Source of the DNA: an uncultured Pseudomonadales bacterium
GTDB lineage: Bacteria; Patescibacteriota; Microgenomatia; UBA1400; PJMF01
Direction: 5' to 3'
DNA length: 64,000 bases
Assembly: GCA_964457085.1 (NCBI GenBank)
Contig: CAYWDM010000005.1
Span: 12,065-76,064, forward strand
Shown here: positions 21,197-61,111 of the stretch, piece by piece
Position numbering within the stretch: the first letter of the stretch is position 1
Layout: every line of letters begins with the position of its first letter
Notes under the pieces: generated by a model
The model's input: only the letters and a program-made list of their open reading frames with translations
What the model was told of the DNA's origin: nothing
Databases searched by the model: none
Translations under genes and position numbers: made by a program

Positions 21197-22296
21197 GACT
21201 CAGATTCAAGTTGAATTTGTTCTAACTGTATAACTGAAGCATTTGGTAGCTGTAACTGCAATTCTTCAAGTGAATCACGATCTGCGGTGGTAAGAATCGT
21301 CTGGTAGGTTTTGAGTAAATCCAGAACAATCATCCGACTTTCGCTATCAAGCTCCGACAAAATATCATCAAGCATTAAAATCGGTTGGGTGGCCAACTTA
21401 TGACGAACATATTCCAACTCACCCAACTTCAACCAAAGCACTGCCAATCGTTGTTGTCCTCTTGATCCATAGCTAGCAATATTGAGCCACTCTTCTAACC
21501 CGAGTTGCAGTCTCGAACCGGGAAACTGCACACAGAAATCATCCTTATGTGGACCAATCAAGCTGTGCCCAACGATTATTTCTTTTTCCAAATGATCAGC
21601 AAGTCGTTGCTCCGAAATTATTGAGGGTAGGTACTGCACTCGCAGGGTAAATTGGAATCCAATGGTCTGCAAAAAATTCAATAACTCCTGTCTCTTACGC
21701 TGTACATATTCCCCATGTTGCACCAAACTAAGATTCCAAAATGTCAAGCTTGAACGAGATTGCTTACGATCAGCAATCTGCTGCAGTACTCGATTGCGAC
21801 TTCTGAGTGTTTTTTCATAGCTGGTAAGAGCACGATCGTACTGCCAATCAATTGCTGATAGTGAACTATCCAAAAAAGTTCTTCGACGACTTGGCGAGCC
21901 CTCAATTAATCTCATGTCTTCAGGTCTAAACACCACAGTAGCTAATTTGCCAATAAAATCTTGTTTGCGACGGCGAATACCATTCACTGAATACAGTCTC
22001 GATTGGGTTTTCTTTCCCTGTACCAATCCTCTGGTAATCAGCATCTCCAAACTAATTTCTTCTCCATCATTTGCTGTAATTTCTCCATGAATTCTCGAGA
22101 GTTCCTGACCCAAGCGTATGGTTTCATCAATTCTGCCAGCTCTAAAACTGCTAGCACTACTCAGCAAACTCAACGCTTCAATAATCGATGTCTTGCCCAC
22201 ACCATTTAGCCCATGTATTAGAGTGGTATGTCCAAAATTTCCCTGCCAGTTGGGAACATTTCGAAAATTGTTAATTGCGAGCGATTTAAGTAACAT
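21193..22296 (-). CDS. recF: DNA replication and repair protein RecF
   Basis: N-terminal LKSLAINNFRN plus Walker A GLNGVGKTS; SMC-like signature region near the C-terminus; 4-nt convergent overlap with nnrD. Confidence 0.85.
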   Translation of the reverse strand: MLLKSLAINNFRNVPNWQGNFGHTTLIHGLNGVGKTSIIEALSLLSSASSFRAGRIDETIRLGQELSRIHGEITANDGEEISLEMLITRGLVQGKKTQSRLYSVNGIRRRKQDFIGKLATVVFRPEDMRLIEGSPSRRRTFLDSSLSAIDWQYDRALTSYEKTLRSRNRVLQQIADRKQSRSSLTFWNLSLVQHGEYVQRKRQELLNFLQTIGFQFTLRVQYLPSIISEQRLADHLEKEIIVGHSLIGPHKDDFCVQFPGSRLQLGLEEWLNIASYGSRGQQRLAVLWLKLGELEYVRHKLATQPILMLDDILSELDSESRMIVLDLLKTYQTILTTADRDSLEELQLQLPNASVIQLEQIQLESES

Positions 22297-22639
22297 GCTT
22301 TTTTTGATTAGCTGCTACTGCAAAACGAATCCACAAATATAAAAGTAAAATTTGCCAATACAAGCAAAAAAACAATAACCAATCAGAAAAAAGTGGCAGC
22401 AAACCACACATCCCAAAACCACTTTCTTGACAAGAAAACACCAATCTTACCATTGGAACCAGAATCAATTTCCAAAAAAAGTAAATCGATCCAACTGTCA
22501 GTGTCGGCAACCAAAGCATCCACGCAAAAACCCGTTCTCTAACCAACGATTGTGCCGTTTGGTAAGGATGCAGTAATAAGCCCTGTGTAATTTGAGCTAT
22601 CGAGTATGCGAGTGACTTTATTACAAACAGAAAATTCAT
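22286..22639 (-). CDS. membrane protein, unknown
   Basis: Three to four TM helices; follows the sigma factor and small ORF on the same strand. Confidence 0.35.
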   Translation of the reverse strand: MNFLFVIKSLAYSIAQITQGLLLHPYQTAQSLVRERVFAWMLWLPTLTVGSIYFFWKLILVPMVRLVFSCQESGFGMCGLLPLFSDWLLFFCLYWQILLLYLWIRFAVAANQKKHVT

Positions 22640-22640
22640 A

Positions 22641-22832
22641 TCATTTTATAAATTGCACAGCTATAGCAGATACCAACGAACCCACACTAATTATTTGCCA
22701 AGGAAAACTTCCCACTAATTGTGCCAGCACATCTAGTTGTTTTGGCAACAAACGTTGCTGCTGCAATTTTGATTGATATATCGCTTCAGTTTCTAGCAAT
22801 TTTAAAAAGTCTTCTTTTGATTTAACACTCAT
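22641..22832 (-). CDS. small protein, possible anti-sigma factor partner
   Basis: 63 aa with C-terminal hydrophobic helix; overlaps the sigma gene stop by 11 nt, which is typical sigma/anti-sigma coupling. Confidence 0.3.
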   Translation of the reverse strand: MSVKSKEDFLKLLETEAIYQSKLQQQRLLPKQLDVLAQLVGSFPWQIISVGSLVSAIAVQFIK

Positions 22833-23394
22833 GAACTAATTCTCTATCAACTACCACATACAGTCGTCTAAACTCTATTCTGGCTCTGAATAAATCAGAC
22901 TCAACCGCCTTCACACTTCTTCCCAACTCCGCTGCGATTTCCTTCACGCCCCGTCCATCAGCGTACTTAAGCAACAATAATTCTTGGTGTGAATCAACCA
23001 TTTGATGCAGCACTTTTAACACTTTATGCGAGACTTCATGTGAATCAGCCACCGGCTCTCCAAGCAATAAATCGGATAGAGGCAAGACTCTGATGGCCCG
23101 TTTTGCGTATATTTTTCGATAATAATCAGCAATTTCATGACTCAAGATGCTGATCATCCAAGTAGAAAGGCTGGATTTTTCCCGAAATAAATTAAGGCTT
23201 TTAAGTGCATTAATGAATGTCTCTTGTACTAGCTCTTCAGCAATAGTGATGTCGGAAGTTTTTTTTAATGCAAAGCGCAGTAGCAGTTGATGGTATTTTT
23301 GATACCAGAGTTTTACAGCCCTACTGTCACCCTGGCGTAGCTGCGAAAGTAATAGCTTTTCTTGACTCAATATCTCAGCCATGGTTTTTTTCAT
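22822..23394 (-). CDS. sigma-70 family (ECF-like) RNA polymerase sigma factor
   Basis: Region-2 like segment (LVQETFINALKSLNLF) and region-4 HTH (VKEIAAELGRSVKAVESDLFRAR); likely start at MKKTMAEIL (23394) rather than the track start at 23460. Confidence 0.7.
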   Translation of the reverse strand: MKKTMAEILSQEKLLLSQLRQGDSRAVKLWYQKYHQLLLRFALKKTSDITIAEELVQETFINALKSLNLFREKSSLSTWMISILSHEIADYYRKIYAKRAIRVLPLSDLLLGEPVADSHEVSHKVLKVLHQMVDSHQELLLLKYADGRGVKEIAAELGRSVKAVESDLFRARIEFRRLYVVVDRELVHEC

Positions 23395-23402
23395 ATCTCC
23401 TC

Positions 23403-23411
23403 TTGTATAAT
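23403..23411 (+). promoter_or_regulatory. putative extended -10 (TTGTATAAT) upstream of the first pilin-like gene
   Basis: TATAAT at 23406-23411 preceded by TG; lies inside the 5' end of the divergent sigma gene; no clear -35. Confidence 0.3.
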
Positions 23412-23416
23412 AGCAT

Positions 23417-23785
23417 TTGAATATGCTTTCCCCACTACTAAGCCCCAAACATATTGGCAAATTGCTTGCAGCTTCATCTGGTGATCCAAATATTAATTTG
23501 TCAGACTACCTTATTTTAAAAAGTGGAAAAAAAGTCAGTGAAGTGTACTCGACGCCAGCTGATATGATCAATCTGGTTGTCTCAAATACTTTTGTAATCG
23601 CAGGATTTTTGTTGTTTATTTTTATTATCGCAGCAGGTTTTAAAATTATCTCCAGCGACAGCAAAGGCATCCAAGAGGGACAGACTATCATCACTGGGGT
23701 TCTAACTGGATTTATAATTATGTTTGCGGCTTTTTGGATTATTCAAATTCTTGAGTTAATTACCGGCGTGAATATTATTTTTTAG
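23417..23785 (+). CDS. T4SS pilin-like small membrane protein, paralog 1 (TrbC/VirB2-like)
   Basis: Two-helix hairpin with the family motif region ...ISSDSKGIQEGQTIITGVLTGFIIM...; track start is TTG at 23417, first ATG at 23423. Confidence 0.55.
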   Translation: MNMLSPLLSPKHIGKLLAASSGDPNINLSDYLILKSGKKVSEVYSTPADMINLVVSNTFVIAGFLLFIFIIAAGFKIISSDSKGIQEGQTIITGVLTGFIIMFAAFWIIQILELITGVNIIF

Positions 23786-23797
23786 AGCAGTATAATC

Positions 23798-24259
23798 ATG
23801 AGCAAGATGAGAACCTTATTTTTAAATGCAACCAAAAAACTAAGCAGACTTCTTTTATTTGTCTTTGGACTTTCGTTTGCTTTTCTCGGTTTCCCATCAT
23901 TGGTGTCGGCACAAGCGGACATCTTTGGAAAAATTAGTGCCCCAGCAGGCGTTGACAAATATAATGCCAAAGCTGGTGTTGGTGGCATTGGCCTCATTTT
24001 ATTTGTTTCTAACCTCATCAGACTCACTACAGTGGTCGCAGGCATCTGGGTCTTTATCAACTTTATTATGGCTGGCTGGATCTACATCACCTCATCTGGT
24101 GACGCCAGTGCACACGCCAAAGTGAGTAGTAAAATGACCATGAGTATCATGGGACTGATGATCATCGTTGGTGCATACACAATCGCCGCACTACTTGGGC
24201 TCATCATATTTGGCGATGCAAGCTATATACTGAATCCAAAGTTGAAAGGTATCCAGTAA
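23798..24259 (+). CDS. T4SS pilin-like protein, paralog 2
   Basis: Signal peptide ending VSA-QA; C-terminal WIYITSSGDASAHAKVSSKMTMSIMGLMII hairpin motif. Confidence 0.6.
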   Translation: MSKMRTLFLNATKKLSRLLLFVFGLSFAFLGFPSLVSAQADIFGKISAPAGVDKYNAKAGVGGIGLILFVSNLIRLTTVVAGIWVFINFIMAGWIYITSSGDASAHAKVSSKMTMSIMGLMIIVGAYTIAALLGLIIFGDASYILNPKLKGIQ

Positions 24260-24654
24260 TGCCAGTATTGGTCTCCACACTCATTGCACAGATGAAAGAC
24301 ATTAATCTTGGGACTGTTGATCCTGCAACAGACGCTTTTAGTAAAGGTTCTGCACAAGCAAATGGCGACAAAGCTATTAGTAATCTTGAGCTTTTTATTA
24401 GCAATACAATCGGTTTCATGACTACCCTAGCAGGATTATTTTTTATAATTTATTTTTTCATGGGTGCCTTTCACTGGATTACTAGTGGTGGTGATAAAAG
24501 TAAAACAGAAAAAGCTCGAGAACAAATCACTCAAGGTGTGCTTGGCTTAGTTATTATCATTGCTGCATATGCAATTATTGGTTTAGTGGGAAGTGTCATT
24601 GGTCTAGACCTGCTCACTCCTGGAGAACAAATCAAAAAATTAATTCCAAAATAA
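24259..24654 (+). CDS. T4SS pilin-like protein, paralog 3
   Basis: HWITSGGDKSKTEKAREQITQGVLGLVIII motif; no obvious cleavable signal peptide. Confidence 0.6.
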   Translation: MPVLVSTLIAQMKDINLGTVDPATDAFSKGSAQANGDKAISNLELFISNTIGFMTTLAGLFFIIYFFMGAFHWITSGGDKSKTEKAREQITQGVLGLVIIIAAYAIIGLVGSVIGLDLLTPGEQIKKLIPK

Positions 24655-25091
24655 TGCATACTATGCGTAATTTTTCCTCAACACTTTTTACAGTTACTTC
24701 ACTACTTATTAGCTCTGCTTTTTCTCCAATTCTCGTACAGGCGCAAGGCATCAAAAATCCAGTCATCGGCAAACTGGGTGACAGTGTCACAAAAGCTGAA
24801 TCTGGAGAGTTATTCACTAGTTATTTTGTCAGCCTTTGGCGAGTAATCATGAGTGTTGGTGCAATTATGGTCATGGTGTATTTTATTTGGGGTTCATTTG
24901 AATGGATTACTAGTGCAGGAGACAAAGGCAAACTTGAATCCGCAAGACAACGCATTACTTCTGCAATTATTGGTTTAATAATCCTCGTTAGCTCACTCAC
25001 GATTATTGGCTTTGTTGGCAAACTGTTCTTTGGAACTGATTTTGATATCTTACAATTAACATTTCCCACACCAGCTGGTGTAACTCCATAA
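24654..25091 (+). CDS. T4SS pilin-like protein, paralog 4
   Basis: Signal peptide ending VQA-QG; EWITSAGDKGKLESARQRITSAIIGLIIL motif. Confidence 0.6.
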   Translation: MHTMRNFSSTLFTVTSLLISSAFSPILVQAQGIKNPVIGKLGDSVTKAESGELFTSYFVSLWRVIMSVGAIMVMVYFIWGSFEWITSAGDKGKLESARQRITSAIIGLIILVSSLTIIGFVGKLFFGTDFDILQLTFPTPAGVTP

Positions 25092-25094
25092 CCT

Positions 25095-25445
25095 ATGTCA
25101 CGACTTGCCCTCAAACTCGATTTTGCTAAAGAAGCTGGTACCCAACAACTCCCAGGCTATAAAAACGTTTCATCTGCTGATGCTGGATTTGGGGCATGGC
25201 TTGGCAGCATTCTGAGTGCGGTTATGTCTGTTGCCGCAATCCTGGTTTTCCTATATCTGATCTGGGGTGGCATTGAATGGATCACTAGTGGTGGCGATAA
25301 GGGCAAAACTGAAGCTGCTCGCAACAAGATCACATCAGCCATTATTGGCATCATTGTTCTGGGTGCTTCAACTGCAATTATTACTGTGGTGCAAAGTTTC
25401 CTGGGAGTCTGTTTCTTAAAATTCGCTGGTGCGAGTTGTATTTAA
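25095..25445 (+). CDS. T4SS pilin-like protein, paralog 5
   Basis: IWGGIEWITSGGDKGKTEAARNKITSAIIGIIVL motif; about 106 nt nearly identical to paralog 6. Confidence 0.6.
   Translation: MSRLALKLDFAKEAGTQQLPGYKNVSSADAGFGAWLGSILSAVMSVAAILVFLYLIWGGIEWITSGGDKGKTEAARNKITSAIIGIIVLGASTAIITVVQSFLGVCFLKFAGASCI
25243..25348 (+). repeat. 106-nt segment about 92 percent identical to 25708..25813 (paralog 5/6 gene-conversion tract)
   Basis: Direct alignment ggttttcctatatctgatctggggtggcattgaatggat... with about 8 mismatches over 106 nt. Confidence 0.8.
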
Positions 25446-25520
25446 TTTTCGCTAGTTTGCTTCGCCAAGAAAGTATTGATATAATAATCTAGTATCACGG
25501 AAATTATTATAAGGATAATC

Positions 25521-25925
25521 ATGAAAAAACTACAACAACTTGCTCTTTCCGCTGGCACAGCCGTCACTTCGCTTGCCATCACCGCTTCAAGCGTATTGGC
25601 TGCAGGCATCAAAGACACCAACATCGAACCCGGCAAGGGTTTTGCAACCAGTTTTGGTGGCTTAGTTAACGGTCTTGTTAGTTTTGTTATGGTCATCGCC
25701 GCAGTAATGGTTTTCCTATATCTGATCTGGGGTGGCATTGAATGGATTACTAGTGGTGGCGATAAAGGTAAAACTGAAGCTGCTCGAAACAAAATCACTT
25801 CAGCCGTTATTGGTTTGATCGTGGTTGCTGCTTCATATGCAATCATGACTTTGGCTCTAAACTTTTTGGGCTTCTCAAACCTCAACGAGGTCTTCCAGAA
25901 CACCAAGACTATCGATGGCAAATAA
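25521..25925 (+). CDS. T4SS pilin-like protein, paralog 6
   Basis: Signal peptide ending VLA-AG; IWGGIEWITSGGDKGKTEAARNKITSAVIGLIVV motif identical to paralog 5 over the core. Confidence 0.6.
   Translation: MKKLQQLALSAGTAVTSLAITASSVLAAGIKDTNIEPGKGFATSFGGLVNGLVSFVMVIAAVMVFLYLIWGGIEWITSGGDKGKTEAARNKITSAVIGLIVVAASYAIMTLALNFLGFSNLNEVFQNTKTIDGK
25708..25813 (+). repeat. second copy of the 106-nt near-identical tract (see 25243..25348)
   Basis: See partner repeat. Confidence 0.8.
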
Positions 25926-25949
25926 GCCAGAGATTTATAAAGCAATTAG

Positions 25950-25976
25950 AAAAGACCCCGAAAGGGGTCTTTTTGG
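25950..25976 (+). terminator. rho-independent terminator after pilin paralog 6
   Basis: AAAAGACCCC-gaaa-GGGGTCTTTTT: 7-bp GC-rich stem, 4-nt loop, T5 run. Confidence 0.8.
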
Positions 25977-26044
25977 TTGTTGAGTTTTACTACAACCACA
26001 TAGACACAAAGTGCAATATGCTGAGATATAATCAATTCACAACA

Positions 26045-26476
26045 ATGAAAAATCGTAAATCAAATCCTCTATATTCCAAACTAATCACTGTTAGTTACTT
26101 GGCTCTTTTTTCTCTTGCATTTCCCCAAGTAGCAAGAGCTCAGACTACCGCTTGGAGCGGAGTTTGTGTGTACGCAGATGATCCTGAAGTTGCCACGATT
26201 CAAGGATTGCAGTGTCTACTGGCAAATGTCTTGTCTGTGGCGCTGACCATTATTGGAATTGCCGGTTTTGTGATGTTGATTTTTGGTTCTATGAAATATC
26301 TACTCTCCGGTGGCAATGCTCAACACGTCGAGAAAGCTAAAAACACCATGACCTATGCAGTTGTTGGTTTAATTGTGGGACTAAGCTCTTTTATTATTCT
26401 AAATTTAGTTGCAAGCTTCACTGGCGTCAGCAGCATTCTGCAATTTACAATTCCAGATTCCTCAACAATGTGGTAA
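26045..26476 (+). CDS. T4SS pilin-like protein, paralog 7 (divergent)
   Basis: Signal peptide ending ARA-QT; YLLSGGNAQHVEKAKNTMTYAVVGLIVGL motif. The track ORF start (TTG 25973) runs through the upstream terminator, so ATG 26045 is preferred. Confidence 0.55.
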   Translation: MKNRKSNPLYSKLITVSYLALFSLAFPQVARAQTTAWSGVCVYADDPEVATIQGLQCLLANVLSVALTIIGIAGFVMLIFGSMKYLLSGGNAQHVEKAKNTMTYAVVGLIVGLSSFIILNLVASFTGVSSILQFTIPDSSTMW

Positions 26477-38297: not shown

Positions 38298-38549
38298 ATT
38301 TATGTATATATATACTAGTAATAGTAGTAGTAGAGATGGTGGATAGGTGGATAACAACTTTCTTCACCTCTGGTTTTACGGTCATTTTTTAAATGGAAAA
38401 CTGTCATAGTATCGGGCATATCTCTGTGAATTTAAATGGTTAAAAGTACATAACTTTACAGCTGTCTTCGTAAAAGTGTAGCTTTTATTCACACTTCTTA
38501 GAAAATATCTACAACTTTATTCACATAGTTATCTACTTTTGTGGATAAC
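38298..38549. other. candidate chromosomal replication origin (oriC): DnaA-box cluster plus AT-rich unwinding element in the dnaA-dnaN spacer
   Basis: Perfect box TGTGGATAA (reverse complement of TTATCCACA) at 38540-38548; 1-mismatch boxes at 38346-38354, 38485-38493 and 38517-38525; 2-mismatch boxes at 38338-38346 and 38529-38537; AT-rich run ATTTATGTATATATATACTAGTAATAGTAGTAG at 38298-38335. Confidence 0.75.
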
Positions 38550-40172: not shown

Positions 40173-40229
40173 TTATACACATAGTTTCCCACACTACACA
40201 AGTGGCGAAACTACTCAAATCAATTCAAG

Positions 40230-42350
40230 TTATTTATTGGTATCTTGAGGACTTGAATACTGGTCAATGGAATAGTATCCATGCAGCTGAGGTTTTGCGT
40301 CAGCACTTTGGTTTTGTGGTGTCTGCTTTGGGGCATTTGCTTGTGCTTTAGCGATAGCTGCTTGTTTTTGTTGCTCCATTATTTGAGAGTTCTGTTTTAG
40401 CGAATCCATAATCTCTTTACTTGGGACTCGACTTTGAGCTAAAATTCCGGCGTCTTCTTGACTATCAATCTTACGCTGTTGCACGCTTGAATATTGAACA
40501 GCTTTGCCACCTGGATTTTCGAGTTCGGCTTTTTTTAATCTCTCTGCCTCTCGTCTGTTAACAATTTCTTCAGGATTGGTGGTAATCACGTCATGTTCCT
40601 CGTCACTGGCAACCACTCGTAGAGCAACATGGTTTGAACCAGCAAAAAAGATACCCTCTCCAACGTCAGAAGCCATTAATAGTTGTTTCTCTCCATCACT
40701 TAAATAAAAAGTTTCGGCCAATACTGGGACTGAAGAAGATGATTGTTTCATTAAAAATTGAATTGAGGCGTTTGAAACAATTGCTTTGCCATAGTCGTTA
40801 TGCAAAAAATCCTCAACATCTTGAGTAATTGTGGTAATTCCAAGGTAATATTTGCGAGCACGTTTAACCATTGAATGAATAAAAGAGGCACTGTCTTGAT
40901 GCTTCATAAAATACCAGGCCTCATCAACGACTAAAATTCGTCGTCTCAAATCTTTACGCACCTTTGTCCAGATGTAATCAAGTATGATATACATGGCGAT
41001 TGGACGGAGTCCTTCTTCCATTTCTTGAACTGAAAAAACAGTGAATTGGTTGGTGATGTTTAAATTAGAAGCTTGATCAAAAATACCTCTAAATGATCCA
41101 GTAATAAACTTCTCCAATCGAGCTGAAAGGTCATTTGCTTCATCATTCTCCATACCAATTAGGGCTTTATATAAATCTTCCATCAACGGTGGTTTATTTG
41201 ACTGGGTGGCCGGGTCAGGAGTAATTCCTTTAGCTTTATAAGCTGCCACAATCGAGCGATCCAAGATGGCTTCTTGTTGAGAGGTCATCTCGCCAAGCAT
41301 CAGCTTTAATAAGCCATGCAGTGAGATAATTTTTTGACCCAGCTCGTTCTCACCCTCCTCATAGAGATTAGCAAGATCAAAGGGATTAATTCTGGTCTTG
41401 GAGTTAAATGTAAAGTTAATGTATTCTCCCTGTACAGCTTTGGACAAATCCTCATACTCATGCTCTGGATCAAGAACAATGACCTCACAATCAAACATCA
41501 GCTGACGAATCACCTCCAACTTAACTGTGTATGATTTTCCTGCACCAGATTTAGCAAAGATCACCATGTTCGCGTTTTCCATCTTAAATCTATCGAAAAT
41601 CACTAGCGAATCATTATGCTCATTAATTCCGTACACAATGCCGGTTTCCATAGTCAACTCGGATGAAGTGAATGGAAAAGTAGTTGCAAGTGAAGTAGTA
41701 TCCATATTACGCGTAATCATCAGCTTATCTCGTCCCATGGGAAGTGTGGTCTTAAAACCCTCGTCCATCTGCAACGTTGCTTTTTTAGAAACGATCAATA
41801 ATGCTCCGAGCGTGGACTGAACATTTTTTGTAACTCTTTCGAGCTCATCAACACTTGGGGCAATGATAGTAACGTACAAGCCGAATTGATAAAAACGCTC
41901 GGCACCTGCAGCCAGTTGCTCTCGGATTGAACGAGCATCATTTAGCTTAATTTCGGTATTAATGTTACTAATTTTTCCAGAACGAACATCTGACTGAATT
42001 TCTGCCTCCATCTCAGTGATCTTGCGTTTGAGGTTCTCTAGAATTTCACTTGAGTCGGTAGGATAGATAAACATGGCAATGTTTGTCTGATACGGGTAGT
42101 TGATCATTGGCGAAAGCCAGTTTGCTGGAACCGATCGGGGATATCCTGCCACAAAAATAGTTCGAGTATATGTTGAGTTGATCTTTTGAAAAGTAAAATC
42201 AACCTCAATTGCCTCTGGAGCGATAATATCTTGTATAGTTACCAACCCTTGAGAGAACTCTTTAAGTTTTTCATACTCTCGTTGCTCTTTGGATAACTCA
42301 GGAGTAATTGGAGCTGGGGTTTTTGGAAAAAAAGGTAAATTGAATGCCAT
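40230..42350 (-). CDS. virB4: VirB4/TrbE/CagE-family type IV secretion ATPase (Gram-positive TcpF/PrgJ-like form)
   Basis: N-terminal YTRTIFVAGYPRSVPANWL (VirB4 N-domain pattern); Walker A FAKSGAGKSYT; Walker B LVVDEAWYF; stop lies 57 nt upstream of the dnaA start. Confidence 0.8.
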   Translation of the reverse strand: MAFNLPFFPKTPAPITPELSKEQREYEKLKEFSQGLVTIQDIIAPEAIEVDFTFQKINSTYTRTIFVAGYPRSVPANWLSPMINYPYQTNIAMFIYPTDSSEILENLKRKITEMEAEIQSDVRSGKISNINTEIKLNDARSIREQLAAGAERFYQFGLYVTIIAPSVDELERVTKNVQSTLGALLIVSKKATLQMDEGFKTTLPMGRDKLMITRNMDTTSLATTFPFTSSELTMETGIVYGINEHNDSLVIFDRFKMENANMVIFAKSGAGKSYTVKLEVIRQLMFDCEVIVLDPEHEYEDLSKAVQGEYINFTFNSKTRINPFDLANLYEEGENELGQKIISLHGLLKLMLGEMTSQQEAILDRSIVAAYKAKGITPDPATQSNKPPLMEDLYKALIGMENDEANDLSARLEKFITGSFRGIFDQASNLNITNQFTVFSVQEMEEGLRPIAMYIILDYIWTKVRKDLRRRILVVDEAWYFMKHQDSASFIHSMVKRARKYYLGITTITQDVEDFLHNDYGKAIVSNASIQFLMKQSSSSVPVLAETFYLSDGEKQLLMASDVGEGIFFAGSNHVALRVVASDEEHDVITTNPEEIVNRREAERLKKAELENPGGKAVQYSSVQQRKIDSQEDAGILAQSRVPSKEIMDSLKQNSQIMEQQKQAAIAKAQANAPKQTPQNQSADAKPQLHGYYSIDQYSSPQDTNK

Positions 42351-42351
42351 G

Positions 42352-43338
42352 TTATTTAATTTCAGCCACTGGTGGCAGAGTGTATTGTTGAGCTTGATCT
42401 GGAATTGGCTGTTCGACTACCGTAGCTGGGGGAGCACTATTCTCAGCAGTCACTTGAGTTTCTGCAATTTCTACATTTGTGAATGGTGACTGATTGGCTA
42501 AAACTGGGCTCTCTTGAACAATTTCTGAATTAATTAGCTCGGTTGTTGGAGATGAAGACCCCACTGAGTCTGCTGACGTCTCGCTTGTTGGCTGCTCGAC
42601 TACTGGGGCTGTAGTTGACTGAGGGTTTGGGTCGGACAAGCTAGTTTTGAATACGCTTGCTCTAACTAAGGGAGTACTATAGTCGTTTGATTCGACTAAT
42701 TGCTGTCCCTCAGCTGTCTCTGGGTTGTAGTTAGTGTAAAAAATCTGGATTATTTCTTGAGTATTCAGCTGTTTTGCAAACAGACCAATGCGGTTAAATT
42801 GTCCCATCAAATGTGCATTTCTGGGCTCAAGTACTCCAGCAGCTTTCTCAAGAATGACGCTTTTCTCGATGGTTGAAATATCGAAAGCATTTTTTTTGCC
42901 AGCACTAGACATGAATGAAGAAGGGGACATAATGCCCATCTCAATGGGACTGGCGGGAATGATTACATAGAATTTTTTATCCAAGACATTTCGCTCTTGA
43001 ATCAGTTTACTAACAAACTCTTGATATCGACCAATTCTTGCTGCTTTATCTTTGCTACTAGCTTTTTCTTGCTGTTTTTTGAGCAAATCAAGATATTTCG
43101 TAGCGTCTTTAGTTTTTGATTGAATATTAATTTGAATTGGATAGTTCAGTGAATTTAGTAATGCAGCATACGCGTAAATAACTGCGTCCTGTTCCTCTTC
43201 AGCCAACAAACTAAAATTCATTGCATATACTGAAAGAATGGTTGAAACAGAGCCATCTTTCATAATCACCATATTATTAGTGATGTCGTAGATGTCTAGA
43301 AATTCTTGAGTGGTGGAGCTGATGACACGGCCTGACAT
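42352..43338 (-). CDS. T4SS-associated hypothetical protein, translationally coupled to virB4
   Basis: Stop TAA is separated by 1 nt from the virB4 ATG; N-terminus (VIMKDGSVSTILSV...FSLLAEEEQDAVIYAYAALLNSL) weakly resembles the VirB4 N-terminal domain; Ser/Thr/Pro-rich C-terminus. Confidence 0.35.
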   Translation of the reverse strand: MSGRVISSTTQEFLDIYDITNNMVIMKDGSVSTILSVYAMNFSLLAEEEQDAVIYAYAALLNSLNYPIQINIQSKTKDATKYLDLLKKQQEKASSKDKAARIGRYQEFVSKLIQERNVLDKKFYVIIPASPIEMGIMSPSSFMSSAGKKNAFDISTIEKSVILEKAAGVLEPRNAHLMGQFNRIGLFAKQLNTQEIIQIFYTNYNPETAEGQQLVESNDYSTPLVRASVFKTSLSDPNPQSTTAPVVEQPTSETSADSVGSSSPTTELINSEIVQESPVLANQSPFTNVEIAETQVTAENSAPPATVVEQPIPDQAQQYTLPPVAEIK

Positions 43339-43396
43339 GTAGTATCTCTATCTTACAAGACAGATGACCAAACAAGCAAGGATTATGCCTGGCTGG

Positions 43397-44698
43397 TTAT
43401 GCTTGACTTACGATCTGGATGGGATCGATGATATTTCCAGCTAAAATGAGTTGTTGATCTTGAAATACATATCCCTCTTTGTCAGTTGTCAGCACATATT
43501 CCCCATTATCAAGCGGAGTAGTTATAAAGAACTGGCCAAGAGGGTTTGTTTTAACAGCTCGTGCAACTTCTCCTTTTGTGTTTTTTATCTCCACAATCGC
43601 ATTGGAAAGTATTTTTCCTGCTGGGGTAAACACCATGCCAACTACTTTATTTGGAACTGTAGGCTTGGAGGGAAAAGGCAGTTGATCACTGTGAGTAGTA
43701 GCAATTGTTGGTTGAATAAAATCAGTTGAGGTTGCTGAGTCATTCACCATAAAAACAGTTTGATCCGAGCTACTCACTAATTGTGGCTGTGGAATGTTTT
43801 GTTGTGAATCATCGGTGGCTGGCGGTGCCTCAATAGCAGGAGTTTTCTCTGGTTCTTCAGCAACACGCTCACTTTTTGTGGAAGTTTCTTCTAAAACGGG
43901 AATTTTAATTTGGTTTGCCACGTCTGCTGGGTTTGAAACAATTGTTTTAGCCATTTGTGGTGGAGGAGTAACTGGCGATCTATCAGTGAAATCTGTTGTA
44001 GTCACAATCTCTACTTCTGAAGTAACCTCTTGTTCTTGGCTAGCAACCTCTAGGGTTGATGTAGATTCCGCTGAAAGTTGGGTGGGAACGATGTCTTCAG
44101 GTTGTAAAGTTGCAGTCGTCGTCGTGATGACCTCATGCAGCTCTCTAACTCTAACCTGTAAATTAGGTTTCTGGATTGATTGAATAGCTGAAATGCTGCC
44201 AACAGTGATTGAACCAAACTCACTCAGAATTGATTGTGACCGCTTATGTTGCTCTTGCTCCCAGGGGTCAATTAATTGAGTCTGATGTACGGAAGTAAAA
44301 TATTCTTGAATTCTTTCACGACGAGCTGGCGATAGATCCACATCTTCTGGTGTTAATATGTTTCCAGTCTCAAGCTTATATAGAAAGGGCTCGGGAATTT
44401 TTACTTGTTTTCTCCAGAAAAATTGGGTGGGTCTATATAAAATATTAAAAAAGGTGCTAAACCAATGACCAAGGGGGCGTTCCTCAATGGGTACAAACGC
44501 AATGGCAACTCCCATACCACCGCTGAGCAAGATAAGTGGCCATTTAACGATTGGGATCAGGTTTGTTTTGTAGATAACTACGGCGATTACCACACCAACT
44601 GCAACCTCAGTAAATTGCTGCAGGGTCATGTTTCCAACGATGTGAAACCGATATCCAGTGACGTCTTGTGGAATGGCGTGCTCTCGCATGACATTCAT
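43397..44698 (-). CDS. PrgI/VirB3-like membrane protein with long low-complexity C-terminal extension
   Basis: N-terminal IPQDVTGYRFHIVGNMTLQQFTEVAVGVVIAVVIY followed by a second TM helix (PrgI-family pattern), then about 300 aa of Thr/Ser/Glu/Pro-rich sequence and a C-terminal beta-rich domain. Confidence 0.5.
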   Translation of the reverse strand: MNVMREHAIPQDVTGYRFHIVGNMTLQQFTEVAVGVVIAVVIYKTNLIPIVKWPLILLSGGMGVAIAFVPIEERPLGHWFSTFFNILYRPTQFFWRKQVKIPEPFLYKLETGNILTPEDVDLSPARRERIQEYFTSVHQTQLIDPWEQEQHKRSQSILSEFGSITVGSISAIQSIQKPNLQVRVRELHEVITTTTATLQPEDIVPTQLSAESTSTLEVASQEQEVTSEVEIVTTTDFTDRSPVTPPPQMAKTIVSNPADVANQIKIPVLEETSTKSERVAEEPEKTPAIEAPPATDDSQQNIPQPQLVSSSDQTVFMVNDSATSTDFIQPTIATTHSDQLPFPSKPTVPNKVVGMVFTPAGKILSNAIVEIKNTKGEVARAVKTNPLGQFFITTPLDNGEYVLTTDKEGYVFQDQQLILAGNIIDPIQIVSQA

Positions 44699-44740
44699 TT
44701 TACACTGCTTCAGAGATGAAAATCGAGCCTATAAATCAGC

Positions 44741-45787
44741 TTACTGCTGTGGTCCAGTAACTACAACAGCCGGGGTGATTATCTCAACCGATACTTCTCC
44801 GCCATTGTTGGTAATGACTGTGCCAGAGAATCGATACACAGGGAATGCGGAACCAGTTTCAATATCAGTCCGATATTCTGATGTCGCCTTGGTTAATTTT
44901 CCAGAAGTGATGGTTGCCAAATCAAGCTGGTTGATAGAGTTTTGGTATGCAGCAATTATTGAACCTTGTCCCGCTAAAATATTGGCAACAGCTTGCTGTG
45001 CAGTAATGGTTGCAACCTGTTTAACGATATTTGTTTCAATTATTTGCTGTTGGATTGTAAGTTTAACTATCTCATTGTCAGCATTTAACATCACTCGAAT
45101 TGGAGCATATTCATCATAATTATTGATTACTGGGAGATTGGCAACCTGAGGAGCAAATGGAATCTCAATAATAGTGGCATTTTTCTCAATGGTTTCATCT
45201 AGATCAGTTTTGTCTTTACGTAGGAATTTTAACTGGCCTTTGACTGGTATGTAGGGGCTTTGGGGGAGTAGGGTTTGAATAAATTGTGTTGCTGTATTCA
45301 CCGCCACTTCTGTTTGAATGGTTTTTCCAACAAATCGTTTGCTCTCTGCCATCGCTGCAGATTCACTAGCTTGTTCCTGAATAGAGAGCTGGTTGTTAAA
45401 AATATACTCATTCCGGTTTTTGTCATGAAATAATGAATAATTATCTCGAACCCAAATGTTCTCTGAGCGAGGGTGTTGGACAAGTTGGTATTGCTCAATC
45501 ATTTGTTGAGCAATTTGGCTAACAATGGTTGGATTCAGTTTAATTCCTGCGATCGGCAGTTTTTCTGGTAGATCAAGCTCAGGTCCGTTATAAGTCAGCT
45601 TTTTAAACTCACTTTTCGTTTGGTTAAAGTTGGTCGACATGAACTCCGATGGGCTGAGGCCTGCATTTCGATTTGGGGTTAGAGAATAAAATATTAAGCT
45701 GAGTCCCGTCGAAAGCAACGCGAAAACTAATAGTCCAATTAGTAATTTTTTATTAGTTATTTGAACAGGCAGGTGGTTCTTTGTCAT
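44741..45787 (-). CDS. bitopic membrane protein (VirB8/TcpC-like position), unknown
   Basis: Single N-terminal TM anchor (LLIGLLVFALLSTGLSLIFYSL) plus about 300-aa extracytoplasmic domain; located between the hydrolase and the PrgI-like gene. Confidence 0.3.
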   Translation of the reverse strand: MTKNHLPVQITNKKLLIGLLVFALLSTGLSLIFYSLTPNRNAGLSPSEFMSTNFNQTKSEFKKLTYNGPELDLPEKLPIAGIKLNPTIVSQIAQQMIEQYQLVQHPRSENIWVRDNYSLFHDKNRNEYIFNNQLSIQEQASESAAMAESKRFVGKTIQTEVAVNTATQFIQTLLPQSPYIPVKGQLKFLRKDKTDLDETIEKNATIIEIPFAPQVANLPVINNYDEYAPIRVMLNADNEIVKLTIQQQIIETNIVKQVATITAQQAVANILAGQGSIIAAYQNSINQLDLATITSGKLTKATSEYRTDIETGSAFPVYRFSGTVITNNGGEVSVEIITPAVVVTGPQQ

Positions 45788-48700
45788 AGCAACTGGTTAC
45801 ATTAGCTTTATACTCGTCTGGAACAGTAATTGGTTTGATACATTCATCTGAAGGCGGCACGATAGAGGCTAACTCTGAAGGTGGGCCAGCTCTAAAAAAC
45901 GCACCATTTCTAGCTATTTCATAATGTAGATGAGAGCCACTTGAGTTTCCGGTATTGCCCATCAATCCAATTACTTCACCAGCATCAACTTCTTTACAAC
46001 CATTCACATACGTTTCTGAAAAGTGACAAAACAAGAACGAGCCTTCAGCAGATTGAAGCGTTAAGTGGTTCCCACAGCCCGAATCGATATTTGCCTTACA
46101 AAGTGTGCCTGGAAATGGTGCATAGACTGGTGTTCCTTGAGGGGCGGCAATATCAAAGGCATCCATTCTCCCATGCGAATAACTGCCAAATGGAGCTTGC
46201 GAGACCACTCCTGTTGTCGGCCAACAGCCAGCTGTCATTGAGCAGTCGCCAATACAAAAACTCTTGCCCGTCATTACGTTGTCATTTCCTTCACTAGTGG
46301 CATTTTTCCAATAGAATATTGCTTCAAAAGTGTTGGTAATCTGTGAATGATTATATGAAGAATCGAATTCCTCTTCATAAGTCAAAGTGAGCGAGCTACC
46401 CGTGCACACTGTATTAGCCGGATTGGTTAAGTCGGTGCTGAGAGGTGGAACAAAATCTTCTAGATGTTTTTCTTTATCTGGTTTGGTGGGAACTGGTCTG
46501 CCGAGCTCCTCATATTTTTTCTTGCTATAGCGAGTTTTAATGATGTCGTTGATTTCGGTGATGGTAATGCAAGTACCGACTCCAGTTGGGGTAATGGTGA
46601 TGGTGTAGGTAACCTTTTGTGTGCCAGAGGTGATTTCAGGGCATTTGTCGTCAAGACAGCCAGTATCGATGGTTTTTGTGAGTGAAGCATAATCGGAGAG
46701 CTTTTCATCTGGGTCACTGGCATTAGTTTGATTTGATGGAAAGTCAGCTAATAGAGCAGCAGTAAAGGCACCATTTGTTATCATCACTGAGGCAACCATA
46801 CCGATGGCTGTGCCTGCAACTGCTTGGGTGGCTGTCGCCACCATGCCTGTACTAATTCCTGTTGCTGCGGTAGCGGTGGTAGTCGTAGCCGCAGCCGTTG
46901 AGGTGGCGGTTGCTGCGTGTGTGGGGCTGACCAGTGAGGGGAGAAAAGAATTGCCAGCTATGCCTGGAGTAGCTGCTGACGACATAGTTGTACTAGCAGT
47001 GCCTCCGAATGTGTTGCTCAGTGAGTTGGAGATAGTGCCTGCATGTTGAGTAAGCCAACCAACTCCAGTACCAACGGCCGCACCAACTCCAGTTCCAATT
47101 ACTGCACCGATTGGACCACCAACGATGAATCCAGTCACTCCACCTATTAATGCACCTGTGGCAGTAAAGGCGGGCATGATCACATTGCCCCAAAGTGCGG
47201 CCATGATCAAGCCACCAGCTGCTAATCCAGCACCGACATATTTGATAGTTTTACCAATTGCATCTTGAACGTCTGCTGGCAAAGCACCGACAGCTGCTCC
47301 AAGTCCCGGCATTCCTAGGGCAGCTCCAGCCAGGGCAGCTGAACCTTTTGCAATTGTTTTATCAAAGGCTTTTTCTAGATTCTTGTTTGCTGTTTTGGCA
47401 ACCGTTTTCCCAGCTTGATTGGCTGCACGCTTGGCAGCTCGTTTTCCAGCACCACCTGCACTACGAGCAATGGCTTTCTTTGCAGCATTGCTGGCGTCAC
47501 CAATCTGGCCAGTTGCTTGTACAGCATCAGCTACTACGCCACTTTTTCCTGCCATACGACGTCGCAGTGAGGCAAGTGGACTTAGGCCTGTGTCAACTGA
47601 ATCAAAAGCGGAGCTATATTCATCAAAAGTCAGATGTCGGCCATTGATGCCATTTTGAGCCATCACTATTTGAGCCTCGCCAACGTCACCCAGACAGAAG
47701 TTGGGTGGGATGTGTCCGCTTTGTAGTAGACGCTGAATCTCATCAGCCTCGTACTGGTTTTGATAGTAGTGCTCGTAAATAGCGATCTGTTCTTGTAACT
47801 TGAGTGACCGCCAAATCTCTTGATTATAGATATCTAACTTCAGCTTTTTGATATAAATGTTCTCGGTTGTTGATGCATTCTTTGGATTTTTGGTGTCATC
47901 ACCAACACCGGTACCGGCAGCAATTACATGGTCGCGGGCATATCCACCGTTGCTACCAGCTGAGGAAATAATGTTTTTAACTGGCTGAACATGTTTTTTA
48001 TCAAATTCTTCTTTGGTTGTTTTTTTTAATTCGTCTCTATCAGCTGGATTAACGCCATACTGGCCATATTCAAGTTTTGCTCCACCCGTAATGTATTCGT
48101 GTCGCCGCAGGTGCCAATAAATGGTAAGCACCCCTTTAAATTCTTTGAATTCGTCTGGGGTTAGTGAGGTATTGAAAATTTGATTAAATTGGTCGGTGCT
48201 GAGAATATCTAGGAATGCTGGCTGTTTGCCGTTAGCAGTGAGTGCATCAATTCGTTCGGTAATTCCATGCACCTGCATGCTTAAATTACCGCTATCAAAA
48301 TATGCAAGCGAATCGCATGCTTCGAGCAGAGCCGATTGCGAGTCACCACCTGCAAACGCTAGATCCGGTCTGACTCCAAAAATGGGATTATTGATGACAT
48401 CATTACTAAACTCAGCCATGTCTGAGTCACTGTTTTTAGCACCCTCAAGTTTTTTGTGTAAAGCTAACAGTGCGGTACGGTCACCTTTACTTTTAAGTTC
48501 TCTATACGCAGACTCAACCGCACTACTGAGTGCGGGGGAGAAACGAGGGTCGCTGTATAGGCCAATTCTAAAATCACTGAGAATTTGTAAACGGAGCCCT
48601 GGGTTGGCATATAAATCTCCCAATCCCTCCATTCCAACTCGCTCAATCACTCTCTTTTCAACATTAAATCTAACTACATCGTGCAACTCTTGTCGTAATA

Positions 48701-49535
48701 TCTCGATTGGAATGCCACTTTTATTCGCGAGGCCAACCAAAAAAGCATTAGTAATACGCTCAGACTCTAAACCAAGAGTGCGAATACTCTCAAAATTTTG
48801 TCTGACACTACGTTCCTGAGGTACTGGTTGAGTTTGTTGTTGATATTGTGTTTGTTCCTGGTCGTTGCTGCCCTCCTCACCACCATGGGCTTCTGTCTCA
48901 ACTGGTTGACTACCTCTGGGAACCTCTGAATCGACTGGGGCAATAAATGCTTCTCCGCGATCATCAGCAAGATCTAGTTGTAGTTCTTTGAGTGCTTCAG
49001 GATCTTCATTAAGTTCTCGTGCTACTTCAATTGCAACCTCGATATATGTCTCAAGTCGCTCTCTGAGTTCTCTATAATGTCCTTGACGATATTCAAGTAA
49101 AAACTCTTCTTGGCCGATGGTGATTAACTCTCTGGTTGCTTGAAACCTGATATGGGTAAAAAGGTCATTTTCAGCGGCAATTAATTTTCCAACTTTTGAA
49201 CCAGCTTCAGAATCAACATTGGCTTTTGAAAGTTGTTCGCCATCAAAGATGAGCTTGGCATGAATTTCATCTATGAGCTTGAAGATGTCTCCAATATAGA
49301 GATATCTTTCACGTTCAGTTTCACTACGATGCTGTCTAATTGCTAACGGCCATTGTTTGGGAGCTGCTTGAGGAAAATCTAAAGTTGGTACAAAAATTTG
49401 CTCTGGAGGTTCGTCTGGAGGCAGTATTTCGCTAACAAAAATTGTGGCATTTAAATCCGACAGGAACCGAACAATTTCTGAGTACGTAGCTCGCTCACCC
49501 AATCGCTTGAGGGTATGTGTCCCCGGTTCAACCAT
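45753..49535 (-). CDS. large membrane-anchored protein with C-terminal M23 (LytM) peptidase domain; PrgK/VirB1-like T4SS cell-wall hydrolase candidate
   Basis: M23 motifs HGRMD (HxxxD) and GLMGNTGNSSGSHLHYE (HxH); central Gly/Ala-rich multi-helix glycine-zipper block; Ala/Thr-rich linker; about 700-aa N-terminal cytoplasmic region. Confidence 0.7.
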   Translation of the reverse strand: MVEPGTHTLKRLGERATYSEIVRFLSDLNATIFVSEILPPDEPPEQIFVPTLDFPQAAPKQWPLAIRQHRSETERERYLYIGDIFKLIDEIHAKLIFDGEQLSKANVDSEAGSKVGKLIAAENDLFTHIRFQATRELITIGQEEFLLEYRQGHYRELRERLETYIEVAIEVARELNEDPEALKELQLDLADDRGEAFIAPVDSEVPRGSQPVETEAHGGEEGSNDQEQTQYQQQTQPVPQERSVRQNFESIRTLGLESERITNAFLVGLANKSGIPIEILRQELHDVVRFNVEKRVIERVGMEGLGDLYANPGLRLQILSDFRIGLYSDPRFSPALSSAVESAYRELKSKGDRTALLALHKKLEGAKNSDSDMAEFSNDVINNPIFGVRPDLAFAGGDSQSALLEACDSLAYFDSGNLSMQVHGITERIDALTANGKQPAFLDILSTDQFNQIFNTSLTPDEFKEFKGVLTIYWHLRRHEYITGGAKLEYGQYGVNPADRDELKKTTKEEFDKKHVQPVKNIISSAGSNGGYARDHVIAAGTGVGDDTKNPKNASTTENIYIKKLKLDIYNQEIWRSLKLQEQIAIYEHYYQNQYEADEIQRLLQSGHIPPNFCLGDVGEAQIVMAQNGINGRHLTFDEYSSAFDSVDTGLSPLASLRRRMAGKSGVVADAVQATGQIGDASNAAKKAIARSAGGAGKRAAKRAANQAGKTVAKTANKNLEKAFDKTIAKGSAALAGAALGMPGLGAAVGALPADVQDAIGKTIKYVGAGLAAGGLIMAALWGNVIMPAFTATGALIGGVTGFIVGGPIGAVIGTGVGAAVGTGVGWLTQHAGTISNSLSNTFGGTASTTMSSAATPGIAGNSFLPSLVSPTHAATATSTAAATTTTATAATGISTGMVATATQAVAGTAIGMVASVMITNGAFTAALLADFPSNQTNASDPDEKLSDYASLTKTIDTGCLDDKCPEITSGTQKVTYTITITPTGVGTCITITEINDIIKTRYSKKKYEELGRPVPTKPDKEKHLEDFVPPLSTDLTNPANTVCTGSSLTLTYEEEFDSSYNHSQITNTFEAIFYWKNATSEGNDNVMTGKSFCIGDCSMTAGCWPTTGVVSQAPFGSYSHGRMDAFDIAAPQGTPVYAPFPGTLCKANIDSGCGNHLTLQSAEGSFLFCHFSETYVNGCKEVDAGEVIGLMGNTGNSSGSHLHYEIARNGAFFRAGPPSELASIVPPSDECIKPITVPDEYKANVTSCYDKEPPACSNN

Positions 49536-49565
49536 ATTTTTTCATTATACCTGGAATCAACCCTC

Positions 49566-56987: not shown

Positions 56988-57132
56988 ACATATATTCTAT
57001 CTGATCAATGTCCACACAGCAATCCGATGTTGCTATTAGATTTAAGCTAACCTTGCACTTTGGTGCGGTTTCCAGTACAAATAAATCAAACTAGTACGAA
57101 AGTTGCCTTAGTAGCACTTTTTTAACCACTTT

Positions 57133-60759: not shown

Positions 60760-61110
60760 TTAATACCCTAAGATATCAATTCCAAAGACTTGTTCCACTA
60801 TTTGAGCAATCCAGTACGAAGCGAATAACAATATAAAGCCAACAAGTGCTGCGGTGACACGTTGCTTGCCGGAGTCAACTGATTTTTTTCCTGCCGCACC
60901 AATCATCATTTCGGCTCCACCAGCAACCAACATTACAAAGAGAATCATTCCCGCGATTGGGAATAAGTAGGCAAGTAAGCGATTTATGATGCCCTCTGGA
61001 GTAGAAAGTTCGACTGTAGCAGTCGAATTAGCAAGTTTGAGTGGATTGAGTTCGTCCAATGTTTGTTTGGTAACTTTTTCAAATCCAGAAAGACTAGCGA
61101 GTAGTGACAT
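60760..61110 (-). CDS. T4SS pilin-like protein, paralog 8
   Basis: MIGAAGKKSVDSGKQRVTAALVGFILLFASYWIAQIV matches the pilin family motif; preferred start MSLLASL (61110) abuts the upstream gene stop. Confidence 0.55.
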   Translation of the reverse strand: MSLLASLSGFEKVTKQTLDELNPLKLANSTATVELSTPEGIINRLLAYLFPIAGMILFVMLVAGGAEMMIGAAGKKSVDSGKQRVTAALVGFILLFASYWIAQIVEQVFGIDILGY

Positions 61111-61111
61111 A

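Follow-up and report, generated by a model that had tools for sequence, protein, structure and literature searches.

A large part of the bacterial diversity that has not been cultivated belongs to the Patescibacteria. In Southlakia, their only genetically tractable member, a type IV secretion system (T4SS) and an essential series of six pilin genes within the T4SS locus are needed for growth on the host (Wang 2023, PMC10633639). A 2025 survey that searched 3,035 Patescibacteria genomes with the Pfam models PF04956 and PF18895 (Quinonero-Coronel 2025, PMC12102498) described 441 arrays of 2-11 pilin genes, in tandem or one non-pilin gene apart and with an average identity of ~25%, which were commonest in Microgenomatia and Saccharimonadia; the same survey noted a T4SS location near dnaA for many Patescibacteria. 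Pilus formation by these systems has been called an 'intriguing possibility' in a 2025 review (PMC12857230). The array of seven tandem pilin-like genes analysed here lies at positions 23417-26476 of a 64,000-nucleotide stretch (the window; contig CAYWDM010000005.1 of assembly GCA_964457085.1), which is chromosomal DNA of Patescibacteria (candidate phyla radiation, CPR) with metagenome-assembled genomes (MAGs) of Candidatus Pacebacteria, Woesebacteria and Microgenomates as its nearest named relatives.

The published arrays (the one in Ca. Southlakia epibionticum ML1, the one known as the 'Sec-secreted array' in TM7x, and the 441 from the survey) share with the window the family PF18895, the phylum, the tandem arrangement of divergent paralogues on one strand, and an MPF-FATA-like monoderm T4SS near dnaA. 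By the published definition the seven genes are an array, being contiguous and of low identity and accompanied by a monoderm VirB4 that is assigned to the CD1110 type by profile. The array is a further instance of a published phenomenon, and the comparative details given below are modest additions to it; the window offers a clean and complete example from the Pacebacteria/Microgenomates side that leaves the general picture unchanged. The initial annotation had called such pilin gene multiplicity unusual, which is wrong for this phylum, given the 441 published arrays and the relatives detected in 566 species genomes when one genome per species was scanned. No counterpart was found in the published array descriptions for the fixed order of seven types, for the expression unit of type 6, for the extracytoplasmic function (ECF) sigma factor module, or for the gene-conversion tract in ORF5 and ORF6. 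By the comparative results the copies seem to be fixed components of a single apparatus rather than spare variants, one of them looks like a major subunit, the variable element appears to be an immunoglobulin (Ig)-domain fusion encoded elsewhere, and relatives in Bacillota bear on the origin of the pilin.

Seven open reading frames (ORFs) of 116-167 amino acids lie head to tail on the + strand of the interval (Table 1), as had been annotated, and alignment and hydropathy give every one of them a hydrophobic helix-turn-helix with two hydrophobic segments per protein. The proposed membership in the CPR-type T4SS pilin family is borne out for five of the seven by scores above the gathering threshold of PF18895 (T4SS_pilin; 26.6 bits), with ORF3 at 31.4, ORF4 at 35.3, ORF5 at 38.5, ORF6 at 39.3 and ORF7 at 39.7 bits, and the window also encodes a T4SS; ORF1 (16.3 bits) and ORF2 (10.2 bits) fall under the cut-off. 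When the orthologues of each of the seven types were taken from 85 related loci, aligned separately per type and compared as profiles with hhalign, every pair matched with 97-100% probability (E 3e-11 to 5e-42), including types 1 and 2 against the remaining types (97-99.4%; type 1, 97-98.5%). By profile comparison all seven are one family, with homology far above chance. The family is large, with 72,103 representatives at 50% clustering (profile search, E <= 0.001), and profile searches of the window brought out two more pilin-domain genes beyond the seven.

Conservation among the seven proteins is concentrated in helix 2 and in the turn between the helices. The turn W-I-T-S-G-G-D-K-G-K-T-E-A-A-R-N-K-I-T is found in ORFs 5 and 6 and nearly so in ORFs 3 and 4, and is degenerate in ORFs 1, 2 and 7, so that the W-I-T-S-G-G-D-K-G-K motif, first described as common to the array, is exact or close in only part of it. 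Identity among the paralogues peaks in the loop (39%) and in helix 2 (35%), drops to 21% in helix 1 and is lowest towards the ends, with 17% for the C-terminal tail and 11% for the N-terminal part, and the loop carries a net charge of +1 to +2 in types 2-7 and of -1 in type 1. Overall the paralogues are 18-23% identical to ORF1 in global alignment and 27-51% identical locally; the exception is the converted core of ORFs 5 and 6, at 70% over 73 amino acids. An AlphaFold2 model of ORF6 has a mean predicted local distance difference test (pLDDT) score of 76.8, with helices at residues 45-77 and 82-115 predicted at pLDDT >90.

The seven types keep their places across genomes. The 85 loci comprise five that were fetched through ORF6 orthologues and 80 that were kept from the one-genome-per-species scan. 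In the five fetched loci each paralogue of the window best matches the gene at the same position, and orthologues (37-81% identical) are more alike than paralogues (27-51%), the converted core of ORFs 5 and 6 excepted. The order 1-2-3-4-5-6-7 is exact in 30 of the 85 loci; most of the remainder keep this order but have type 2 or type 6 in additional copies, or are cut by contig ends, and nine loci start with an additional type-4/type-1 block. Complete arrays mostly consist of 6-11 genes (mode 7), all on one strand. Type 6 is the most conserved type, at 62-81% identity across the five fetched loci, and a search with ORF6 returned 858 homologues, the orthologues being 60-93% identical. In two more distant genomes the type-5 orthologues (L004, 5357-5956; L005, 5330-5908) are extended at the C-terminus by a Gly-rich linker and a Cys-rich domain of ~60 amino acids; ORF5 of the window lacks these and has a short tail holding two Cys. 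Spread outside the Patescibacteria, as a record titled 'TM6' (L058, CP011212.1) might indicate, was rejected, the locus being syntenic with those of Pacebacteria MAGs and its flanking genes 67-89% identical to theirs. Other loci also carry record titles from outside the Patescibacteria, namely Vitreimonas (L013 among such records) and, in many cases, 'uncultured Pseudomonadales'.

Expression signals were identified by direct reading and folding of the sequence and were then scanned over all 85 loci, where the remaining positions of the array served as controls. Upstream of position 1 the layout TGATATAAT-AnCA-N4-ATG is kept in ~60 related loci, and because of this layout and the TATAAT box 11 nucleotides upstream, ORF1 most likely starts at ATG 23423. 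The start of ORF7 is most likely ATG 26045 and not TTG 25973, since the latter falls inside the terminator hairpin 3' of ORF6. Only 10-12 nucleotides separate the end of TATAAT from the ATG at ORF1 (23406-23425) and ORF7 (26027-26047, with TATAAT at 26027-26032), which suggests, with an inferred transcription start at ORF1, near-leaderless or leaderless mRNAs at ORF1 (for ORFs 1-5) and at ORF7. ORFs 1-5, with spacings of 12, -1, -1 and 3 nucleotides, are probably one tightly packed, translationally coupled operon. A minus-strand ORF of 167 amino acids (25442-25945) is the shadow of ORF6.

Type 6 appears to be an expression unit of its own. Unlike ORF1 and ORF7, ORF6 has a leader of 35 nucleotides with a strong Shine-Dalgarno site. 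Among type-6 orthologues an upstream -10-like box, often TGATATAAT, is present in 81 of 83 loci and a Shine-Dalgarno-like site (AAGGAG-like) in 80 of 83. Downstream of the type-6 stop, 75 of the 85 loci (88%) have a terminator-like structure made of a hairpin and a T run, compared with 0-7% at each of the other positions. The hairpin of the window has a folding energy (dG) of -25 kcal/mol and a z-score of -5.96. A general promoter and terminator scan of the window found fewer promoter-like sites than in shuffled sequences and missed the terminator of ORF6. Since a promoter-like box, a Shine-Dalgarno site and a terminator all belong to type 6 alone, it is the candidate for the major subunit.

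The N-termini fall into two subclasses, as the initial annotation had described, and the inspected orthologues show them too. Four of the seven proteins (types 2, 4, 6 and 7) have an n-h-c region that ends in A-x-A and three (types 1, 3 and 5) lack one, signal peptides having been called from hydropathy and A-x-A motifs alone; the same split of four and three is repeated at L004 and L005. In types 1, 3 and 5 and their orthologues at these two loci the N-termini are short and semi-hydrophobic and follow conserved patterns (ML..LLAAQ; ML(T)L(L/I)A(K/Q); ..L(D)FA(K/Q)EA), which in types 1, 3 and 5 are separated from helix 1 by a polar stretch of 25-35 residues and which may represent a new kind of leader. 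In type 7, two conserved Cys lie in the predicted mature N-terminal part.

ORF5 of the window departs from its orthologues in its core. Over 135 nucleotides this core is 87% identical to ORF6 and only 60-69% identical to ORF5 orthologues, and the tract also shows up as a direct repeat (D2; 201 nucleotides, 79%). Types 5 and 6 of other genomes are 62-71% identical to each other, and in the closest relative fetched (L001) the amino-acid core of type 5 is not ORF6-like. These comparisons identify the tract in ORF5 as the product of local gene conversion, by which the conserved core is homogenised.

The strongly variable element of the system, judged from homologues, is not the array but the N-terminal domain of a family of Ig-pilin fusions, one of which is the ninth pilin-domain gene of the window. 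This protein begins with a signal peptide, continues with two Ig-like beta-sandwich domains and a linker rich in Cys, and ends in a pilin hairpin (AlphaFold2 pLDDT 80.6), and a Foldseek search with it matched chains of two Ig domains at ~2e-7. Among 104 homologues of ~230-520 amino acids it is mostly the C-terminal third that is conserved, and the N-terminal domains vary. The fusion is adhesin-like and is a candidate adhesive subunit. The eighth pilin gene, directly downstream of the fusion, is followed by genes for a 901-amino-acid secreted protein (57997-60702) and a 569-amino-acid protein with multiple transmembrane helices (55278-56987), both without family matches. The genes at 55278-62302 may form a second T4SS-related cluster.

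The T4SS of the window is of the monoderm type by its gene content. Its cluster (37182-51383, - strand) adjoins dnaA, dnaN and yidC, that is, the replication origin. In those proteins of this cluster that were scanned, Pfam found no coupling protein or relaxase domain, and a 605-amino-acid and a 348-amino-acid protein had no family matches. The array is flanked by ordinary genes, which encode RecF, NAD(P)HX dehydratase, UppS, a Nudix protein and an aminoacyl-tRNA synthetase, and tRNA and Rfam scans found no tRNA and no Rfam family in the whole window.

A gene for an ECF-type sigma factor is divergent from the array and abuts the first pilin gene in 60 of the 67 loci whose upstream side is visible, even where the outer flanks differ. 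The two genes for small membrane proteins downstream of it in the window also follow the sigma gene in L002-L005 and in the JGI locus; the whole module is absent from L001, the closest relative fetched. No family matches were obtained for the 117-amino-acid protein (Pfam) or for the 63-amino-acid protein (NCBIfam), and the two are possibly an anti-sigma module. An ECF-type promoter was sought upstream of ORF1, and a housekeeping-type extended -10 box was found instead. The 2025 survey (PMC12102498) does not mention the sigma factor, and a literature search found no paper joining Patescibacteria, ECF sigma factors and type IV secretion.

Table 1. Features of the pilin array and of related loci in the window (aa, amino acids; nt, nucleotides; TM, transmembrane helix).
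Feature	Coordinates	Strand	Remarks
Two small membrane-protein genes downstream of sigma gene	22286..22832	-	63 aa, one predicted C-terminal TM; 117 aa, multi-TM
ECF-type sigma factor	22822..23394	-	190 aa from ATG 23394; Sigma70_r2, r4_2, ECF; divergent from array
TATAAT -10-like box	23406..23411	+	11 nt upstream of ORF1 ATG
Pilin type 1 (ORF1)	23423..23785	+	120 aa from ATG 23423; mechanical ORF start TTG 23417; loop SSDSKGIQEG; no canonical signal peptide
Pilin type 2 (ORF2)	23798..24259	+	153 aa; signal-peptide-like N-terminus ending LVSA/QA
Pilin type 3 (ORF3)	24259..24654	+	131 aa; no canonical signal peptide; 1-nt overlap with ORF2 stop
Pilin type 4 (ORF4)	24654..25091	+	145 aa; signal-peptide-like N-terminus ending LVQA/QG; 1-nt overlap with ORF3 stop
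Pilin type 5 (ORF5)	25095..25445	+	116 aa; no canonical signal peptide
Gene-conversion tract in ORF5, source ORF6	25245..25340	+	partner 25710-25805; 90/96 nt identical
ORF6 expression signals	25480..25515	+	extended -10 TGATATAAT, TATAAT at 25480-25485; Shine-Dalgarno AAGGA at 25511-25515
Pilin type 6 (ORF6)	25521..25925	+	134 aa; signal-peptide-like N-terminus ending SVLA/AG; most conserved type
Intrinsic terminator 3' of ORF6	25950..25975	+	GACCCC-GAAA-GGGGTC, then T run
Pilin type 7 (ORF7)	26045..26476	+	143 aa from ATG 26045 (MKNRKS...); signal-peptide-like N-terminus ending VARA/QT
VirB4-like T4SS ATPase, CD1110 family	40230..42350	-	NCBIfam NF045971, 376 bits (cut-off 325)
TrsD-like protein	42352-43338	-	match under cut-off
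PrgI/VirB3-like protein	43397-44698	-	match under cut-off
348-aa protein	within 42352..49535 (T4SS genes)	-	no family match
1260-aa protein	45753-49535	-	C-terminal M23 peptidase domain
Eighth pilin-family gene	60760..61155	-	131 aa at most; PF18895 31.9 bits; E 1e-19 in a separate search; directly downstream of Ig-pilin fusion
Ninth pilin-domain gene (Ig-pilin fusion)	61112..62302	-	396 aa (387 aa from second Met); pilin domain aa 321-390, E 3.5e-14

Relatives of the array proteins occur in Mycoplasma and Bacillota. ORFs 3-7 match NCBIfam NF045849, the Mbov_0395 family of pilin-like conjugal transfer proteins from Mycoplasma integrative and conjugative elements (ICEs), at 24.5-30.4 bits (E 1.6e-5 to 2.2e-7), under the cut-off of 40 bits; on these scores they are related to this family but lie outside the equivalog, and NF045849 is the nearest curated family besides PF18895. 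A tblastn search of 72,556 plasmids with ORF6 gave one match, on a megaplasmid of Pontibacillus sp. ALD_SL1, to a protein annotated as Mbov_0395 family that is 33.7% identical to ORF6 over 83 amino acids and shares a Y-I-T-S-x-G-D...E-E-A-K loop. The Pontibacillus cluster (L092, NZ_CP062975.1, 11812-21365) contains two tandem homologues (hidden Markov model E ~1e-15), followed in order by a 779-amino-acid protein, a small membrane protein, a 274-amino-acid protein in the position of TrsD, a CD1110-type VirB4 and a 1050-amino-acid M23 hydrolase; its gene set is that of the window, with two pilin copies in place of seven. The family was found in 2 of the 72,556 plasmid records, a weaker match being that on a megaplasmid of Priestia megaterium. 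The Pontibacillus cluster suggests that a monoderm T4SS lineage may be where the pilin-like gene belongs; as it is a single cluster and the family is rare in plasmids, this counts as a lead rather than a result. The Pontibacillus cluster also bears on the claim that there are no pilin genes in Gram-positive T4SSs.

Many family members hold more than one pilin module. Among the 149 best family representatives, 66 have 2-8 modules per chain (for example, 552 amino acids with 6 modules and 820 amino acids with 8), and these poly-pilin chains (P0225, P0229, P0244 and 63 others) have 4-16 predicted transmembrane helices. In P0229 a type-5 module is joined to a type-6 module with a short linker in place of the type-6 signal peptide, and because of this replacement the chain is unlikely to be a read-through artefact. 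Its arrangement hints at contact between types 5 and 6 and at a location of both termini on one side of the membrane.

With moderate confidence, the seven genes are read as the conserved pilin set of a Patescibacteria-type monoderm T4SS, forming a heteromeric structure in which type 6 is the major subunit and the other types are minor or specialised ones. By analogy with VirB2 and TraA, the proteins would insert in the cytoplasmic membrane with their termini outside and the basic loop inside, and the VirB4-driven machine would pull them from the membrane. The subunits would then stack into a surface filament or stalk in which the conserved loop lines the interior and the N- and C-terminal parts, which are variable, are exposed. 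This arrangement is proposed because the conserved basic loop and the variable ends can be mapped on the solved T-pilus, in which VirB2 is U-shaped, with its termini outward and its basic loop, conserved in VirB2 and TraA, in the lumen binding phospholipid head groups (bioRxiv 10.1101/2022.09.25.509369). Exposed termini would also agree with the extra domains found at the termini, N-terminal Ig domains in the fusion and C-terminal Cys-rich domains in type-5 orthologues. The seven types would be non-interchangeable parts, with type 6 abundant and types 1-5 and 7 minor or specialised, the Ig-pilin fusion would be the candidate adhesive subunit, and the divergent ECF sigma factor, to judge from its adjacency, would probably couple expression of the set to an envelope signal.

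Several points weigh against this reading. No filament of any Patescibacteria T4SS has been observed so far (PMC12857230), and the array lies 14 kb from virB4, outside the T4SS cluster, whereas the pilin series of Southlakia is within the T4SS locus. The match to TrbC/VirB2 that the initial annotation had proposed stands for architecture and not for sequence: in the Pfam search with PF04956 (cut-off 27.9 bits) ORF3, ORF6 and ORF7 scored 16.5, 17.7 and 15.0 bits and the others had no match, and in hhalign comparison with six annotated alphaproteobacterial VirB2/TrbC proteins from PLSDB plasmids, a shallow alignment that makes for a weak negative, the pooled profiles reached 2.1% (A2) and 0.6% (A1) and the best single type, type 1, reached 27.6% (E 6.5e-4, hairpin aligned on hairpin). 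Homology to TrbC/VirB2 is thus not demonstrable by sequence, and a remote homology may exist. The fold search is likewise non-specific for a helical hairpin: the ORF6 model had no Foldseek match in the PDB at E <= 0.001 (best E about 2), the Aeropyrum conjugation pilus 8dfu ranking seventh among many unrelated helical hairpins (TM-score 0.65 on target, root-mean-square deviation 2.7 A, 70 columns), and a PDB sequence search with the family profile returned nothing relevant, its sole match being a G protein-coupled receptor chimera (E 0.71). The three types without a recognisable signal peptide would nevertheless have to pass N-terminal parts of 30-45 residues across the membrane. The boxes at ORF1 and ORF6 look housekeeping-type and not ECF-type, and therefore it is adjacency that links the sigma factor to the array. 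Type 6 is present in every locus by construction, the loci having been found with type-6 patterns. Finally, chains of many modules are awkward for a pilin that must be extracted from the membrane.

The last point also speaks for the main alternative, in which the proteins are membrane-resident T4SS components, either parts of the translocon or anchors that display extracellular domains, and not filament subunits; this may likewise hold for their homologues in the conjugation systems of Bacillota and Mycoplasma, from which no pilus is known. This is unlikely, though far from negligible: it would suit the 66 multi-module representatives with their many predicted transmembrane helices, the relatives in Mycoplasma ICEs, the Pontibacillus homologues beside a CD1110-type VirB4 and an M23 hydrolase, the description of Gram-positive T4SSs as lacking pili (PMC12102498, PMC10633639) and the fact that a T4SS pilus has never been seen in Patescibacteria. 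However, a conserved basic loop, variable termini and one type that looks highly expressed suit a polymer with a major subunit, and a fixed set of seven types with adhesin-like fusions resembles sets of major and minor pilins; multi-module chains could also polymerise if their linkers ran along the exterior of the filament, where the termini are in solved pili. A reading as unrelated small membrane proteins that resemble pilins, such as holins or bacteriocin immunity proteins, is scarcely credible. Two-helix hairpins are very common, and the structural search yields many unrelated ones, but the holin or immunity-protein reading was rejected because Pfam and NCBIfam gave no such family, the T4SS pilin families being the only consistent matches. 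Homologues moreover lie inside the T4SS clusters of Saccharibacteria (PMC12102498, PMC10633639) and of Pontibacillus, and there are no phage genes near the array in the window.

That the paralogues are interchangeable alternative pilins, serving antigenic variation or a wider host range as proposed for the VirB2 proteins of Bartonella and Anaplasma, is distinctly improbable. The 2025 survey (PMC12102498) suggested this for Patescibacteria, and low paralogue identity in global alignment, with the variation mostly in parts predicted to be exposed, would fit, as would the conversion tract in ORF5, by which copies do recombine. The tract, however, homogenises the core and does not diversify the exposed parts, and antigenic variants are disfavoured because the order 1-7 is fixed and orthologues are more alike than paralogues, each type being individually conserved with its position kept across related genomes. 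The packing of ORFs 1-5 implies co-expression, scans for repeats, for promoters and terminators and for Rfam families gave no sign of an expression switch (no search was aimed at inverted repeats in particular), and the strong variability sits in the N-terminal domain of the Ig-pilin fusion and not in the array. Of the three meanings that the initial annotation had proposed for the multiplicity, antigenic variation is therefore the worst fit to the collinear and individually conserved types, and a heteropolymeric or functionally specialised set is the best.

A bolder form of the heteromeric reading can be put forward only tentatively, as possible but doubtful. The seven types, the Ig-pilin fusion and the eighth pilin would together make up an ordered heteromeric filament, with type 6 as its shaft and the others as base, tip or adaptor, switched by the ECF sigma factor. 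Given the homologous genes of a Bacillota T4SS cluster and of the Mycoplasma ICE family, the pilin would be original to a monoderm T4SS lineage rather than borrowed from diderm systems. If this were true, some Gram-positive T4SSs would also make a pilus-like structure. The comparative results provide testable leads for groups that culture Saccharibacteria or image environmental CPR cells.

Compared with known pilins, the array resembles in architecture TrbC, VirB2 and TraA of diderm T4SSs, which are likewise small, have two hydrophobic helices joined by a short basic loop and come from a genome that also encodes VirB4, and whose N-terminal leader has a possible counterpart in the leader-like N-terminus of four of the seven array proteins. 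The array loop of ~14 residues (TSGGDKGKTEAARNK) is longer than the luminal loop of VirB2 (residues 89-93), and the window, unlike the diderm TrbC/VirB2 systems, belongs to a monoderm host with no VirB5, VirB7, VirB9 or VirB10. The tandem VirB2 paralogues of Bartonella, Anaplasma and Rickettsia resemble the window in being several divergent tandem pilin genes of a host-dependent bacterium (PMC12102498), but they are true PF04956 proteins of diderm T4SSs and have been read as antigenic or host-range variants, whereas the window holds a member of position-conserved orthologous sets. Type IV pili and the pseudopili of type II secretion have no homology to the array, differing in fold (a single N-terminal helix and a globular head) and in assembly machine, and the likeness to them is one of analogy only: an abundant subunit is accompanied by conserved low-abundance subunits encoded in a neighbouring operon, some of which have adhesive domains.

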